From assembly GCA_035221665.1 (NCBI GenBank), contig CM069162.1:21576001-21640000 (forward strand): 64,000 nt of DNA, given 5' to 3'. This DNA is from Okamejei kenojei (lineage: Eukaryota). The position numbers were made by a program, and so were the translations under genes. The notes below the pieces were generated by a model that had not been told where the DNA came from, did no database searches, and saw nothing but the letters and a program-made list of their open reading frames with translations. Within the stretch, counting starts at the first letter, position 1. Each line of letters starts with the position of its first letter. This document shows positions 11,988 through 62,939 of this stretch, piece by piece.

Positions 11988-12143
11988 NNNNNNNNNNNNN
12001 NNNNNNNNNNNNNNNNNNNNNNNNNNNNNNNNNNNNNNNNNNNNNNNNNNNNNNNNNNNNNNNNNNNNNNNNNNNNNNNNNNNNNNNNNNNNNNNNNNNN
12101 NNNNNNNNNNNNNNNNNNNNNNNNNNNNNNNNNNNNNNNNNNN
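11988..12143. other. Assembly gap
   Basis: Run of N. Confidence 1.
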
Positions 12144-12299
12144 NGAATTGGTGGAGAGGTGGAATATTGCGTCCGGGGACCAGCCCTCCGGTCTGGGTCC
12201 CACTTAGTCTATAATCTTATATGTTTCATTAAGATACTCTCTCATCCTTCTAAATTCCAGAGTGTACAAGCCAAGTTGCTTGTCATTAAATTTTTAGTG

Positions 12300-42144: not shown

Positions 42145-43422
42145 TATGCATTGGTCACAGAAGATAACTTTGCGATTTTTAAGTCAATCTAGTGAGAGTC
42201 AAAACAGCTCAGTGACTGAACAATAAAGGTTTTCTCAATTAAATTCTCAGAGTCTTTCAATGGCTTAATCAGTGTCACATGTATTGACCCAGAAGGGCTG
42301 TAGAAAATCTGATTTGGCAATAACCCCGGGAGCTGCTTCCCTAACTCCACTTTAAAAGATTAAGATAAATGGGGCCGAACATTCTAGACAAATCCAATCA
42401 AATACTAGACTATCTTCCAAATTACCTGAGTGACAACCGTGCATGTAATAGACGCTTGCTGAAATAGCAGTTGTGGAATCAGTTTATAAAACCTGGATTA
42501 TGCAAAGAACATTTAACCAGCTCATTGCCTATGTAACTATCATAACATTTAAAAGGTATTTGTACGCATACGTGGAAAGGAGATTTGCTGAGGAATTGAC
42601 AGCATGTGCAGTACAAGGAGGACTGTAAGGAGTGGGTTATGTGCCACCCCAACTGTGATGGTTAGATACATATTCTTAAGAAAACGTGTGACAACGTGCA
42701 CTTATATAACGAGATTTTTAATGTCTCAAAGCTCATTCCATCCAATGAGACATTTCTGAGGTGTATTTGCTCTGCACAATCTATGCTATACCATAGATAA
42801 AGAGCACATAGCAAGCTCCTAAAATAGTAACATGATCATCACTAGATAGTTTGAGGTAGAAATTTGTTCTTGGTCACAAGCTGTCAAGCACTGATATGGG
42901 AGCGTTCACACATCCTACCTGCTTCCAAAGTTCATGTCCACTGATTTCAGTGGAATCAAGTTTAGAAATCAGAATACTGGTTTATCATATCATATCAGGT
43001 ACTGGTTGAGGGCAACAAGGACAAATTATGTTTTAAAGGCCTGACTAATAAGTATTCACTGGGGAAGCTGGAGAGAACTGTTATCAGGCAATTGAATCAT
43101 CCTACCACAACCATAGAGCAGTGCTGAACTACTATCAACCTCTTTGATGACCCTCGGGCTATCCTTGAGCAGACTTTGCTGGCATTACCTTGCACTAAAC
43201 GTTATTCCCTTATCATGCATCTGTGCACTGTAAATGGATCGATTGTAATCATGTATTTTACTTCGGAGTCACGTGAGTGACTCTGTGAAGACCCCGCCAG
43301 CACGCATGCGCGACATATCGTCTCGCGCATTAGCCTCGACAAGCTGGGGGGGGGAGAGTGCGCTCTCTCCACCTGCTCCTTCAAAAGGCCGTCAGGTAAG
43401 TTACTAACCTTATTCCAACAGG

Positions 43423-45247
43423 ATGGACAAAGGTAAAAGGAAGGCAACGCTATCCAGGAGCCGTGGGGCATCGACTAGCCAGCGGCCTTTGTCACCGGAG
43501 CTGCAAGCACCACCGGCAGCTTCGGGACGGTCGGGGGCAAGAATGCGGAAGTCGGGCGCTCCCGTTAGACCAGCGCCCGACTCATCACCTGAATGGTTCA
43601 CCGCACCGGAGCTGGAGCCTGCTGACCCAGACTTCGTGCCCCCATCCCCCAGGAAGAGGGGGAGCAAACAGGTACGTGGAAAGGAGCCTCGCTCGTCGCC
43701 AGCGACCTCACCCCGAGTTCCAGCAGACCCACGGGGACCGGACCGGGGACCGGGCCGGGGAACGGCTGCGCTACAGGGGAGCCCAGCAGCCGCACTCTGC
43801 CACGTACAACTGCCAGGGATATCTGCCGTAGGGCAGTCTGGCAGAACTACTGCTGCGTCGAGCAGCCCTGCAGGAGCAGGTGCTGCCGGCACAACACCTC
43901 GTCAGGCTGCGGTCAAGGGCGTTGTTGGCAGCAGTAGACGGTCGGTCAACTTGGCTCTGGCAGCTGCCGACCATGCGCCTCCATGCAGAACATTGGGCGA
44001 CAGTGGAGGTAAGTCTGCACGGACTACGGGGAGCCAGGTTCCGGGGGCCGACGTCGATCCAACTCACCTGCCTTCGTACCAGACAGGTGGGCCGCCACAG
44101 TCTGCGAGGAGACAGACTAGCGGAGAGTCCGTGCGGGAGTCGTATGAGCCTACAGGGGCGGTAGGCCACGACGACCTGCCATCGGACCCTAGTCAGCACC
44201 TTACGGAGGTGTGGTCCGATGGTGGAAGCCCCAGTGAATTCGCAGGGCCTGGGGAAGTCGGCTTGTCCACTGCAAATAGCAGGGACGGTCGCATTGAGCG
44301 GTTGGAGCTCTTAGTGGAGCAACTCCTCCAGCGGGACAGGGACCGGGATGAACGGGACTCGCAGGCCTCTACAAGCCACGCCAGGAGTCCACTCAGCCTC
44401 TCGTCTTCACCAGCCAGGAGTGCCAGCAGTTGCCCGGCCGCTGTTTTCGAAGACGACCCGGGACTGCCGGAGACCGCAGAGCCAGAGCACGATGAGGACA
44501 TGCTGGACGTGGTGGGCAAGTTTGCCACGGCCACACAAACTGGGGAACCCCTGCACCACAAACTGGCGGGCACCATTAATTACCTGATCACTCACCAACT
44601 TCAGGGTCAGGTACTTATTGAGACAATGGAGAAAATCAAACCACCTGAGAACTGCATCAACCTCAGTGTTCCCATGGTCAATGCTCAGATCTGGGGACAT
44701 TTGAGCACGGCCAACAAGATGCAGGATGTCCGTCTCCAGCGTATCCTGAAGCTCCTCTCCACGGGCATAACAGCGTGTGCCAGGACCCTCGATGGGGACA
44801 ATGTGTCCAGCGAGCAGCAGGATGCCCTGGCACTCTTATGTAACGCCCAGTTCGAAATAAACTGCCTGCGCAAGAGCTCCATTAAGCCCACTCTCAACCC
44901 CAAATTTGCGGGGTTGTGCCGTCCATCTACCGCTCCACCACCTCATCAACTGTTTGGAACAGATCTTTCCAAACAAGTGAAGGAACTAGATGAGAAGGCC
45001 AAAACAGCGGGCCTTATGAAACCTCCTCCGACAAAACCCCACCCATATCACCGTCAACAACCACACACTACTTGGAAGCAGCGCCAGCCGGATAGGACGC
45101 CAAGGACCTATCCCCCTCCACTTCCCCAACCACAGCGGCCTTTTTTAAGGGCAAGGCCTACAGCGGCCCGCATGGAAGATGCGGCCGCCATCCCGACAAC
45201 CTCCGCAACGTCCACCCAAAACGCCATACGCCAGGACCCACCGTTAA
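43423..45247 (+). CDS. DIRS gag-like ORF1 (LAP2alpha-like domain), fused in frame to pol in this copy
   Basis: Low-complexity N-terminus, coiled coil RIERLELLVEQLLQR, core PPENCINLSVPMVNAQIW...DVRLQRI...LFGTDL; inferred native stop TAA 45245-45247 in the +1 frame. Confidence 0.8.
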
Positions 45248-47137
45248 CCATGGAGGTAAGGGGATCTGGTTCCTCTCAGACAGTAGCATCCCTTCCTGCA
45301 CAAATTGGGGGACGATTGCGGGCCTTTCGGGGAGTTTGGGACACTATCACCACTGATGTATTTATTTTACAAAGTGTTCAAGGTTATGTTATAGAATTCA
45401 TTGATGGTCAATTTCCCCCTACCCAGCATTCGCCTCATCGAAAATTTACACTCTCTCAAAATGAGGTTGAGGCAGGACATGCCAAAATCTTACGGCTCGC
45501 AGCAAAAGGGGTGATTGGGAAATCAACGCATGAACCCCTTGAGTTTGTGTCCAACATCTTCACCAAAACTAAAAAAGATGGGGGGTGTCGAATTATTATA
45601 GACCTAACTGAGCTGAACACTTTTGTACAATATGCCCACTTTAAAATGGATACCTTTGAAACAGCCCATGGCTTTTACCCGGGGTACTTTATGGCCTGCA
45701 TCGATTTAAAAGATGCATACTATACAGTGCCCATCACTGAATCGCACAGAAAGTTTCTGAAATTTGTCTGGAAGGAACAGTTGTGGGAATACAAAGCATT
45801 GCCCAATGGTCTCACCACAGCCCCCAGACTATTTACCAAATTAGTGAAACCTATATTTGCCCTCCTCCGACAACAAAATTACATTGTCATGGCATATTTA
45901 GATGATATCCTTATTGTGGGTCAGACCCTCCAATTGGCTATACGGGCAGTTACAGCGACTAAATCTTTATTCGAGAAGCTAGGATTGGTAATCCATCCAG
46001 ACAAATCTAAACTGCACCCCTCTCCAATTATGGATTATCTGGGTTTCACCCTTGACACAACCTTAATGATGATCACTATCCCAACCAACAAAGCTATCAC
46101 TATAAAAGAAGCGTGCCACAGCCTTGCTTGCGCCAGGGTACGGACCATCCGGCAAACGGCAAAAGTAATTGGGAAGCTGGTAGCTACATTCTCAGCTGTG
46201 CAATTCAGCCCATTACATTATCAAAATTTACAAAGAACAAAGATCGCAGCATTAAAAGCAAATGCTGGGCACTTTGATCGACCAATCCGATTACCACAAG
46301 AGGCTAGAGCTGAGCTACAATGGTGGATTGACAATATTAGCGAGCGTCACAGACCCATCATAGTAAGCAACCAGACACCCGCACAAGGCTGGGGTGCAAC
46401 TGACACCATGTCCAGTTGTGGTGGCAGATGGGACTCCCATGAGTCTACCCTCCTTCAGTCACAAGGGATAAATTATATTGAGATGTTAGGAGCTTTCCAT
46501 GGACTGCGGGCTTACTGTACCAACTCACGGGACTTACATGTCCGCCTCCAAATAGATAACACAGCGGTGGTGGCTTATATCAATCATATGGGTGGTCTCA
46601 GGTCGCTATCTTGTGATGAATTGGCAAACACAATTTGGCACTGGTGCATCGAGAGAAATATTTGGGTTACAGCGAACTATTTGCCAGGGAAGCTTAATAC
46701 AGTGGCGGACACCAGGTCATGAGTATTCAATGACAACATCGAGTGGATGTTGAACCCCCAAATTTTTGCTGACATTATATCTCACTATGGGACACCAGAC
46801 ATTGACCTCTTTGCGTCCAGGTCGTACGTGTCTTGGGAACCAGACTCTGGGGAATAGCAATGGATGCGTTTTCTATCCATTGGGGGAAATGGTTTTGCTA
46901 CGCATTTCCCCCATTTTGCCTCATCAGTCGGGTATTGCAGAAAATTAAACTGGACTCCGCAACTGGGATATTGATCATTCCCGACTGGCCTACACAGCCA
47001 TGGTACCGATGGTCCTTAAAATTTTGAAACAGCCATGGCTTCCGATTGGGAAACACCCCAAATTAATTACTCACCCCATTACGGGGGACAGTCACCCGTG
47101 CCATGGTCACCTAAACTTGTTGGCCTGCAGGTTCTAA
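45172..47137 (+). pseudogene. DIRS pol: reverse transcriptase, RNase H and DNA N6-adenine methyltransferase-like domain (disrupted)
   Basis: RT motifs IDLKDAY, LPNGL, YLDD; RNase H INYIEML..., IDNT, NTVAD with the TDAS motif deleted; TGA at 46720, then DIDLFAS, YAFPPF and PDWPTQPW with frameshifts; stop 47135-47137. Confidence 0.9.
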
Positions 47138-48092
47138 AAAGACCACTCATCAAGGTGGGCATCTCACCACAAGCCTTGGAACTCATCTCAGCATCATGCC
47201 GAGTATCAACCCGGAGGCAGCACCTCACACAATCAGGAAGTGGGAGGCATTCTGCTCTCGTACCAACACGACTGCCAACATGGCAACAATCCCTGATGTC
47301 CTGGAATTCCTAGCTGGCCTTCATTTCGATGCTGGCCTTAGCTACAGTGCCATCAACAGCGCCAGGAGTGCACTATCCTCATACCTGGACATAGGTATAG
47401 GCTCCAACCACCTGGTGTCTAAATTCATGAGGGGAGTGTTTAACACCAACCCTCCACGGCCCAGATACAACTTCACCTGGGATGTAGGGATCGTTCTGAC
47501 CCTACTGAGGAGCTGGTCTCCAATGACCGAGTTACCACTCAAACAGCTCACCCTCAAAGTGGTGATGCTGATGGCACTGACTACAGCTCCATGAGTCCAG
47601 GCATTACAGAAGCTGCGGCTGGATAGCATGGTCTCCACCCCTACACAGGTGACTTTCTTTGTCCAGGACTTATTGAAGCAGCACAGGCCAAGGGCTCATG
47701 GACTGCACTTGGAGTTTCGGGCGTACCCTACTGCTGCCACCCTCTGCATAGTTACCCATCTCCACCACTACATCCGAATTACATGAACCATCAGGAAGAA
47801 GGAGCAGGGGCTCCTTATCAGCCACAAACCTCCGCATCACCGGGTGACTGTGCAGACTATCGCCAGGTGGCTCAGGGCGGTGTTGGGTGCAGCAGGAGTC
47901 GCTACTAACATTTTAAAATCTCATTCTACTAGGGCTGCATCCACATCAGCGGCGAGGGCCATGGAGGTGCCCATGGACCACATCCTCGCCACCGCGGGCT
48001 GGGCCAGTGAAGCAACCTTCCAAAGGTTCTACAATAAACCACTGGTCGCCCCCGCAACATTCGCAGAAGCTGTGCTGGGAGCCACTCAGTGA
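47131..48092 (+). pseudogene. DIRS tyrosine recombinase (disrupted)
   Basis: GISPQALELISAS.R.ST..., GLSYSAINSARSALS, HSTR, AGW, RFY; frameshift near 47230 and TGA at 47592 and 47784. Confidence 0.9.
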
Positions 48093-48262
48093 ATGTTTGT
48101 CCCCCAGTTAGGGGTTCTCTGTTCATTATTATTTGTTTAATAAATATGCATTATTTTTCAGCCAGTTTTGACTGAACTGCATTAACAGTCTTCCTCCATC
48201 AGACTGGCGGCAGTGTGATAGCATGGACATTGTCCAGGGCGTGAAATTACAGAGCTTTGAAA

Positions 48263-48376
48263 TCTTCACAAAGTCACTCACGTGACTCCGAAGTAAAATA
48301 GTAAGATTAAACTAGAACCTACCAAGTTCGAAGGTTGATCTTTATTTTATGAGGAGTTGCGGTGAGGGATTTCGTG
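48263..48376 (+). repeat. DIRS internal complementary region (ICR)
   Basis: 48263-48300 is the reverse complement of 43254-43291 (1 mismatch); 48299-48376 is the reverse complement of 48515-48592 (3 mismatches). Confidence 0.95.
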
Positions 48377-50341
48377 CCCTCCGCTCCCACCCTCTATCAT
48401 AAGGTCAACTGGGAAGTTCTACGTTCTTCATCTTACTATTTTCAGTCATGGTGCGTTCTGTGATTCCACACCGCTGCTTTGAAGGATGCCGCGCATGCGT
48501 GCTGGCGGGGTCTTCACGAAATCCCTCACCGCAACTCCTCATAAAATAAAGATCAACCTTCGAACTTGGTAAGTTCTCGTTTAATCTTGCTATTATCTTC
48601 CTGTTGTCTGGTTAGTACGCAACAAATGCTTTCCACTGAACCTCGGTAAACGTGACAATAAACTCAACTGAACTGAGAATTGGGTATTGGATTAAGGTAC
48701 CATTGTGGTAGCCAAATGGCTGCACATCTGACAGCACAGCATTCACCCAATAAAGTATTCGCTGGATTACAAACTGACAGAAGCATCTCCTGCAATTGTG
48801 CCATTTGAAAGTGTCTCTTTACCCCATCAGCAAAGTCCTAACTGGCACCTCTGAGGGTCTGAATTTGCCTGGCAATGAGCCGAGCAATGGAGTTTGTTGC
48901 AATATTAAAACAATCCATTGCTTTTACCTGTGACCCTGTGGCCCACTTTCACCTCTTGAGTCAGACCTACTCCTGTAACGTGAGCAGGTATTTCAGTAAG
49001 TGCTGATTATCCAAAGATTTTTAGCCACATTGTTAAAGCACCAGCTTTAACATTAGGACACAAGGGAGGGAACAGGACGTGGCCATCTGATGCTTCTAGC
49101 CAGTTCCATTATTCATCTCGTTCATGGATAATCTTCGACCTCAGTGTCACTTTCCTGCACTATTCTCATATCCCCAAATTCCCTTAATACCCAGGAATCG
49201 ATCAGTCTGAGCTATGAATGAATGAATGAATGAATTAATGTATCCTGTGAGTTTCCAACAGCCTTTGAGCAGAGAATTCCAAAGTTTCACCACCTTCTGG
49301 GTGAAGGAATTTCTGCCCATCTCAAAGTCTTAAGTGGCTAATGCTTTCTTCTCACACGGTGTCCGGGTTTCCTCAGTCAGTTGAAACAAAAGATTATATA
49401 GAACCTCTCATTACAAAGCCCAAACTCAAATGCTAACAGTAATACTGCTGACATTCTCGGAGATGGAGCAACATTTGAACTGCAGACAAGTTTGGATTAT
49501 CAATAGCAATCCTTGTCAATATATTTGTGTACCAACTATTATTTTTAAATATTAATTGTTTGCAATATTTCGAGTAGCTGGATTATTTAAAACTATGTAC
49601 AATGTAATAATCATTTATTTATTACATTGGTGAACATCCTGATCTATTTCTTGAGGAGTCACCAGGTTCATTTATTCATGTGTATATATATTTATATAAT
49701 TATATAATAGTATATGGACACACTGATCTGTTCTATAGTCATGCCTACTATGTACTGTTGTGCTGAAGCAAAGCAAGAATTTCATTGTCCTACCAGGGAC
49801 ACATGACAATAAACTCCCTTGAATCTTGAATCTTGAATCTTCATGACTTTAGGTTTATGGTTGTTTATGGACTACAAATACTCTGATTGGAGAACCCCCA
49901 CTATTTCATAAGTTGCCATTCCCTTCACACTCCTGAAGGTTACGATGGGATATCTGGTTTACAAAGTGTTTACCAGAACCTTAACGTACAGAAATAAAGT
50001 ACCTTTACACTTCAGAGATCTCAATCATTATAGCATCTAACATGGGAACTCAAAACTAAAAGATGATCAAGAGACTGCTGAAGCTACAAATCTGAAAACC
50101 CTGGAAAGACTCAGCAGATCCGGCAGCATCTGTAGAAATAGAAACAGGTTTAATGCTTCAGATCCAGATCTCTTAGCAGAACTAGGAAAGCGAGGATACA
50201 AGTTAATTTTTAGTGGCAGAGTGAATTAGAGGGAGGGGATGGGATGTAACGGGAGGCAAAGGAAACAAACACAATGTACACAGATAAAGAAGAATGATCT
50301 GAACCCAACTGCAATACCTAGGACTACATTAACTGATCTAA

Positions 50342-62765: not shown

Positions 62766-62939
62766 NNNNNNNNNNNNNNNNNNNNNNNNNNNNNNNNNNN
62801 NNNNNNNNNNNNNNNNNNNNNNNNNNNNNNNNNNNNNNNNNNNNNNNNNNNNNNNNNNNNNNNNNNNNNNNNNNNNNNNNNNNNNNNNNNNNNNNNNNNN
62901 NNNNNNNNNNNNNNNNNNNNNNNNNNNNNNNNNNNNNNN
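62766..62939. other. Assembly gap
   Basis: Run of N. Confidence 1.

Follow-up and report, generated by a model that had tools for sequence, protein, structure and literature searches.

A predicted -1 frameshift signal at the gag/pol overlap of DIRS1-like retrotransposons, approached from a decayed copy with fused reading frames

The gag-pol frameshift site of HIV-1 reads AAU UUU UUA GGG, and passages of PMC5737442 describe its 3' GGG as important for frameshifting. For U6A alone, -1 slippage of 4-6% in reticulocyte lysate without any stimulator is given in passages of PMC3458567, where the usual spacing of a stimulator is put at 5-8 nt. A review treats gag/pol junctions with a -1 overlap and a classical heptamer, an arrangement resembling the layout reported here for DIRS elements, which are not mentioned in the part of that review that was covered. 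DIRS1-like retrotransposons are characterized in passages of three papers (PMC3266345; PMC9210276; PMC7192593) by inverted terminal repeats, an internal complementary region and a set of genes which all recur in the element described below; the overlap within the internal complementary region is given as 3 nt (passage of PMC3266345). Overlapping ORFs are described in the same passages (PMC3266345; PMC9210276; PMC7192593), the translation of pol and of the third ORF is not. In the literature covered no slippery heptamer and no gag-pol frameshifting was found for DIRS1 elements; key reviews lay outside that scope, and an earlier mention is quite possible.

The window, i.e. the whole eukaryotic stretch of 64 kb that was analyzed and to which all positions refer, is rich in repeats and contains a decayed DIRS1-like tyrosine-recombinase retrotransposon of 5.3 kb at 43254..48594 on the forward strand, as are all features named below. 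It was delimited by self-BLAST, which revealed terminal and internal complementary repeats, and by domain order. The left inverted terminal repeat (43254..43316) pairs with 48486-48548 at 83% identity, the right inverted terminal repeat together with a right extension occupies 48486..48594, and the internal complementary region (48263..48376) consists of one half complementary to the left end (48263-48300) and one complementary to the right end (48297-48376), which overlap by 4 nt. TATT is seen at each end, an observation that bears on target-site duplication and stems from the filled site only. The left terminal repeat contains, at 43303-43313, a GCGCATGCG-like palindrome that recurs upstream of gag in two of the distant loci introduced below (L001 and L002), despite Gag identities to the window of only 37-44%.

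Between the repeats lie gag (ORF1, 43423..45247, recognized by Gag homologues), pol with RT, RNase H and a methyltransferase-like domain (45286..47131) and the remnant of a tyrosine recombinase gene (47131..48092), all co-oriented, and it is this order by which the element qualifies as DIRS1-like in the sense defined in the passages of PMC3266345. The RT was recognized by an RVT_1 match at aa 717-877 of a 1099-aa ORF (E 1e-19), whereas domains past RT were assigned by tblastn to a distant element, L003, the ORFs of which match RVT_1, PCIF1_WW and Phage_integrase. The recombinase remnant is 43% identical to the L003 recombinase (E 9e-72, tblastn), its own Phage_integrase match fell below the cut-off (E 0.0011), and nine other window ORFs of at least 150 aa were scanned without a Pfam match. 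The genes are broken: pol contains stops from 46720-46722 onward together with at least two frame breaks, the recombinase remnant one frame break and two stops. Since both the RNase H/methyltransferase region and the recombinase region are interrupted in this way, the window copy is a dead element. Elsewhere in the window, runs of N occupy 11988-12144 and 62766-62939, and the remainder is full of dispersed short repeat families and (GT)n tracts.

Just 5' of the gag ATG lies a consensus-like candidate splice donor, CAG|GTAAGT (43393..43401), and no such donor was detected within 130 nt of the gag ATG in L001-L003. Together with a branch-point-like word, TACTAAC, and an acceptor-like CCAACAG|G, it falls within 43393-43425, all in about 30 nt before the gag ATG, a spacing too tight for one ordinary intron and an arrangement not seen before the gag ATG of L001-L003.

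The gag frame reads CCT TTT TTA AGG GCA at 45139-45153, so that the heptamer T TTT TTA (45141..45147), predicted here to be a -1 frameshift site, stands in X XXY YYZ phase, as the preliminary description of this DNA had stated. All coordinates of that description were confirmed, including its account of the Gag tail: the frame that reads GQGLQRPAWKMRPP...RTHR closes at TAA 45245-45247, and an ATG comes next at 45250. In the window copy the gag and pol frames are joined by AA at 45147..45148, one base more than most sister copies possess, and the fused ORF runs from ATG 43423 to TGA 46720-46722 over the 1099 aa mentioned above. A -1 slip in this copy would meet a stop after 45353, the downstream -1 frame being not open here. 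The heptamer by itself is not rare, with 18 occurrences of TTTTTTA on the forward and 19 on the reverse strand of the window and 276 XXXYYYZ heptamers on the forward strand, 16 of them inside the element; as we read the sequences, its weight comes from conservation.

Sister copies were examined in contigs drawn from three public runs of organism A and a fourth of organism B, which were aligned to 45020-45340 at 80% likeness; runs X8-X11 were taken as RNA by guess only. Among the 32 longest pieces (of 2467), nine bridge 45147 with at least 31 bases on each side, and of these eight are one base shorter than the window, one is two bases shorter and none has the same length. A one-base gap at 45147 is present in 11, 11, 2 and 11 contigs across the four runs, and loose ends past 45147 open with GGGCAAGG in 14, 11, 5 and 8 contigs. 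When the listed depths are subtracted, an A at 45147 is left with shares of about 0.4%, 1%, 0% and 2%; these are our own arithmetic and refer to contig depth, which is not copy number. The origin of the 1099-aa ORF by insertion of one nucleotide, as put forward earlier, agrees with the eight shorter bridging pieces, and the opposite outcome, a majority of fused copies, was not encountered in the sister contigs, most of which are not fused. Judged by these contigs, the normal state of the sister copies is a gag that continues through Pro-Phe-Leu-Gly to the TAA at 45245-45247 and a pol overlapping it in the -1 frame.

A large share of contig depth at 45147 is made up by T. In run X1, all contigs with T at this position carry it at most six bases from the aligned end, which is consistent with six T's aligned from the right. 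Piece 27 of run X8 is gap-free with T at 45147 and 24 bases on its right, and its depth is 66.5 out of about 300; in X3 and X12 the corresponding distances are 33 and 31 bases. A minority of sister copies thus seem to reach the length of the window by a seventh T. Such putative seven-T alleles would mean that in-frame copies arise through more than one kind of accident, and indels may be concentrated at the T-run, as at the HIV site. As a separate observation, summed contig depth rises about tenfold at 45240-45275 in all four runs (to about 600,000 in X1 and X3), a stretch that covers the gag stop, the ATG at 45250 and a candidate splice donor; it could be either conserved across subfamilies or common to another high-copy repeat.

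The window copy had been described as locked into fusion by its extra base. It is indeed one base longer than most of its sisters, but functionally the expression says nothing, as stops and frame breaks downstream disable the copy in any case. By comparison with the sister contigs, the 1099-aa gag-pol ORF is a private accident of an already dead copy, and the extra base, as assembled, would be either a mutation or an assembly error. RT slippage was considered as its origin and rejected, as it adds T and not A. Even the best public runs contain only 0.48 of the element's words, for which reason the window copy itself may be missing from them.

Conservation was assessed in Gag proteins with a profile that matches 5213 clusters (50% identity) at E 0.001, of which the best 150 were used. 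Together with 15 earlier matches these gave 160 proteins; ten in which the end of the core was not reached were dropped, leaving 150, from which four near-duplicates (146 remaining) and 25 sequences with tails shorter than 50 aa were removed. Of the resulting 121 homologues with tails of at least 50 aa, 112 contain Phe-Leu near the Gag end, at a median of 38 residues from it, a count biased upward by the FLG columns which the profile contained; shuffled tails contained the pair in 9.4 cases on average and in 19 at most (500 shuffles). Among homologues outside the profile seed, 103 of 112 contain the pair, and grouping by core-only score gave 36/40, 37/40 and 40/41, all proteins having been chosen by the full profile. 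The columns beside Phe-Leu are mostly less than 45% conserved.

Phe-Leu is preceded by Pro in 85 of the 112 proteins, otherwise by Ser (12), Ala (5), His (3), Asn (3), Arg (2), Thr (1) or Gly (1). Residues whose codons cannot end in T (K, E, Q, M, W) are found in none of the 27 non-Pro cases, against a background of 0.245 (p 5e-4). It is followed by Gly in 100, Asp in four, Ser in three, Glu in two and Asn, Arg and Ala in one each; the base after the heptamer can therefore be G in 107 of 112, and for each of the five exceptions (Ser, Asn, Arg) one G-to-A substitution may suffice as an explanation. Near the site, five predicted proteins terminate in Leu-Phe-stop and a sixth has Pro-Phe-Phe-Arg, which would correspond to what a T-run with AG behind it gives in the +1 and -1 frames. 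Two homologues, P0077 and P0115, terminate in Pro-Phe, presumably the outcome of five-T alleles, and P0129 has Tyr-Leu-Ala at this place. The motif is absent in nine of the 121, several of which are off-frame or fused products.

Only one of 163 Gag homologues, P0053, continues into RT, and it is short and without the motif; a search for long Gag fusions retrieved none, which is weak evidence. The named relatives with a similar tail come from skates and consist of Gag alone (337-502 aa), so that the host of the window element is probably a cartilaginous fish. Downstream of the site, at 45170-45185, a WKMR peptide over the hairpin described below is kept in the close relatives P0003, P0066, P0082 and P0283-P0285, skates included. 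Its codons can spell a pol-frame ATG (45172 in the window), and the residues before Trp did not differ significantly from expectation with respect to such an ATG (4/45 against 0.177, p 0.08).

At the DNA level, a metagenome scan confirmed three of 165 candidate stretches, L001, L002 and L003, and searches of viral contigs, genome contigs and plasmids yielded no relatives. All three are DIRS elements with Gag identities of 31-44% to the window and of 60% between L001 and L002; L002 has a frame break within RT (L002 1903-1960), so this copy is damaged too. T TTT TTA GG stands in gag phase at Phe-Leu-Gly in all three. Under each element's own codon use the joint chance of the heptamer codons in the window and L001-L003 is 3e-7, and it is still 1e-3 when these four sequences are allowed a pyrimidine tract and an AG from the outset. 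Upstream in gag about one in ten codons of the -1 frame is a stop (48/432, 32/378 and 42/424 in L001, L002 and L003, respectively), whereas from the heptamer to the start of RT there is none in 75, 81 and 75 codons, for which the chance with the Gag protein held fixed is 0.033, 0.001 and 0.0003. The first Met of the -1 frame is reached at codon 21 in L001 and at codon 62 in L003, and L002 has none for 176 codons, well into RT; a pol-frame ATG precedes the RT core in the window, L001 and L003. The heptamer at the gag/pol junction, its phase and the -1 overlap, all noted earlier in the window, are hence conserved in three distant DIRS elements. As far as the sequences of L001-L003 and the sister copies show, the heptamer lies in the zero frame and pol in the -1 frame, which is open from the heptamer onward.

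We therefore propose that U UUU UUA GG at the gag/pol overlap of animal DIRS1-like elements is probably a programmed -1 frameshift signal by which Gag-Pol is made. The production of Gag-Pol through -1 frameshifting had already been suggested for this locus and gains support from phase, -1 overlap and conservation, from which the slip itself is inferred. Most ribosomes would end Gag about 30-45 codons past the heptamer, while a few percent would slip back one base on U UUU UUA by tandem -1 slippage and go on to read a leader, RT, RNase H and the methyltransferase-like domain.

A stimulator of the slip was sought among local RNA structures past the heptamer. The hairpin at 45163..45188, pointed out in the preliminary description, is real as a fold (-16.8 kcal/mol) and starts 15 nt past the heptamer, at a longer than usual spacing; its role is doubtful. 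Cut out alone it reached a z of -3.97 (0 of 200 shuffles), the stretch having been picked after the fact, and it is unremarkable in context, with z of -0.39 and -0.65 for the 70 and 100 nt after the window site. The next 70 nt gave z of -0.54, -1.98 and +0.77 in L001, L002 and L003. As a frameshift stimulator, the part earlier assigned to it, the hairpin was rejected, probably rightly, being too distant and absent in the relatives. No structure common to the window and L001-L003 was found at 5-8 nt after the heptamer, and the results of a crude pseudoknot scan were matched by 9, 8, 1 and 60 of 60 shuffles (window, L001, L002 and L003). Since no common stimulatory structure was found in this local stretch, the slip may depend chiefly on how slippery U6A is by itself, together with the following GG.

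Other explanations of the same sites have to be weighed against ribosomal slippage. It is unlikely, although this is the main alternative, that TTTTTTAG|G is a 3' splice site and pol is translated from spliced RNA, either from a downstream ATG or from a phase-2 upstream coding exon. AG|G behind a T-run is compatible with an acceptor, and a G is possible after Leu in the 107 of 112 homologues noted above; the window offers the consensus donor at 43393-43401, pol-frame ATGs (45172 and 45250) and, upstream of the site, a C-rich stretch of 30 nt that is 73% pyrimidine, and the figure of 1e-3 that speaks against an acceptor is drawn from four sequences. Splice acceptors tolerate C, however, and usually prefer CAG. 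Such tolerance would give Phe-Ser, Leu-Pro and similar pairs, yet Phe-Ser occurs in only three of the 121 tails, in 107 of which Phe-Leu is followed by a residue whose codon starts with G. In L001-L003 the pyrimidine tract is short, with only 37-47% pyrimidine upstream of the T-run, and AG dinucleotides stand 7-12 nt before it. A downstream start would leave the open frame beginning at the heptamer unexplained; the Gag tail cannot spell a pol-frame ATG within the overlap in 76 of 112 homologues, although an ATG past the gag stop is possible. L002, which lacks a Met between the site and the RT core, could be accommodated only by an upstream coding exon. For that version, the window donor at 44006 is in phase 1 and not in phase 2.

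Considerably less probable is slippage of a polymerase, RT or RNA polymerase, on the T-run, by which some templates would be lengthened by one base and encode Gag-Pol in frame without a ribosomal slip. HIV RT adds or drops one base in a U6 run in vitro, and the putative seven-T alleles (X8, X3 and X12) as well as the two homologues ending Pro-Phe can be seen in this light, but passages of PMC5737442, which report the effect, treat it as at most a minor source of Gag-Pol. The X1 contigs with T at 45147 fit six T's, the process would supply T where the window copy has an A, and it does not account for the TTA in codon phase with which the run invariably ends. We consider it equally improbable that PFLG is a protein motif, e.g. 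a cleavage or binding site, with an incidental T-run and pol started from an internal ATG by reinitiation. The conservation of Pro (85/112) and Gly (100/112) exceeds what a slip site would strictly require, and the window has an ATG 2 nt past the gag stop, but codon choice is fixed in four of four DNA sequences (3e-7), the -1 frame is open from the heptamer and L002 offers no Met. That one continuous gag-pol ORF, such as the window copy has, is the natural state of the family is hardly credible: the window is open for 1099 aa and run X8 holds the same-length piece (depth 66.5 of about 300), but eight of the nine bridging pieces among the 32 longest of 2467 are one base shorter, the sole homologue entering RT sequence out of 163 is the short, motif-less P0053, and the named skate relatives are Gag-only.

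If ribosomal slippage operates at the heptamer, the same event might serve a second enzyme. Just past the gag stop a candidate splice donor, GAG|GTAAGG (45253..45261), lies in phase 0 of the pol frame, and where homology to recombinases begins there is a candidate acceptor, CCTGCAG|GTT (47124..47133), which is in phase 0 of the recombinase frame. We tentatively suggest, at somewhat less than even chances, that one slip feeds two enzymes, unspliced RNA giving Gag-Pol and RNA spliced at 45256-47130 giving Gag-recombinase. The predicted intron of about 1.9 kb is in frame. GAG|GTR occurs at phase 0 of the pol frame soon past the gag stop in L001-L003 as well as in the window. CAG| stands in phase 0 at the onset of recombinase homology in the window, 1875 nt beyond the donor, and in L003, 1952 nt beyond it, and P0053 and P0084 have a Glu-Val pair at the place of the candidate donor. 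Against the splice count the many recombinase homologues with Met at or near the acceptor column. Of 67 such homologues in which residues precede that column, only 31 have a pair able to end in AG there (LQ, MQ, LK), and the recombinase homologues showed no N-terminal leader of the kind expected from a spliced transcript, their extensions looking like pol overlap.

The window copy itself is of no importance; what matters is the family to which it belongs. The DIRS site is probably a known recoding mechanism in a group of retrotransposons where we have not found it described. If this holds true, -1 frameshifting would extend to a retrotransposon order outside the LTR group, U6A-GG would be a natural case acting without an evident stimulator, and a signal of nine bases would be fixed across a large animal clade (the 5213 Gag-profile clusters at 50% identity). 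For annotation it would follow that a break between gag and pol is normal in such DIRS elements and that a fused ORF marks a damaged copy. In Ngaro elements, which also belong to the DIRS order, a programmed frameshift from RT/RNase H into the recombinase was proposed on the basis of a -1 overlap (Poulter and Butler 2015, quoted in PMC13003380); these form another superfamily, the junction is a different one, and no heptamer is named in that quotation. From HIV-1 the DIRS elements differ as retrotransposons of another order with a tyrosine recombinase and by having no common stem-loop at 5-8 nt, and the site is compared with no claim of descent from retroviruses. What both have in common, as far as passages of PMC5737442 and PMC3458567 describe the HIV-1 gag-pol signal, is U UUU UUA followed by GG, in gag phase and encoding Phe-Leu-Gly, and a pol in the -1 frame that overlaps the Gag tail.
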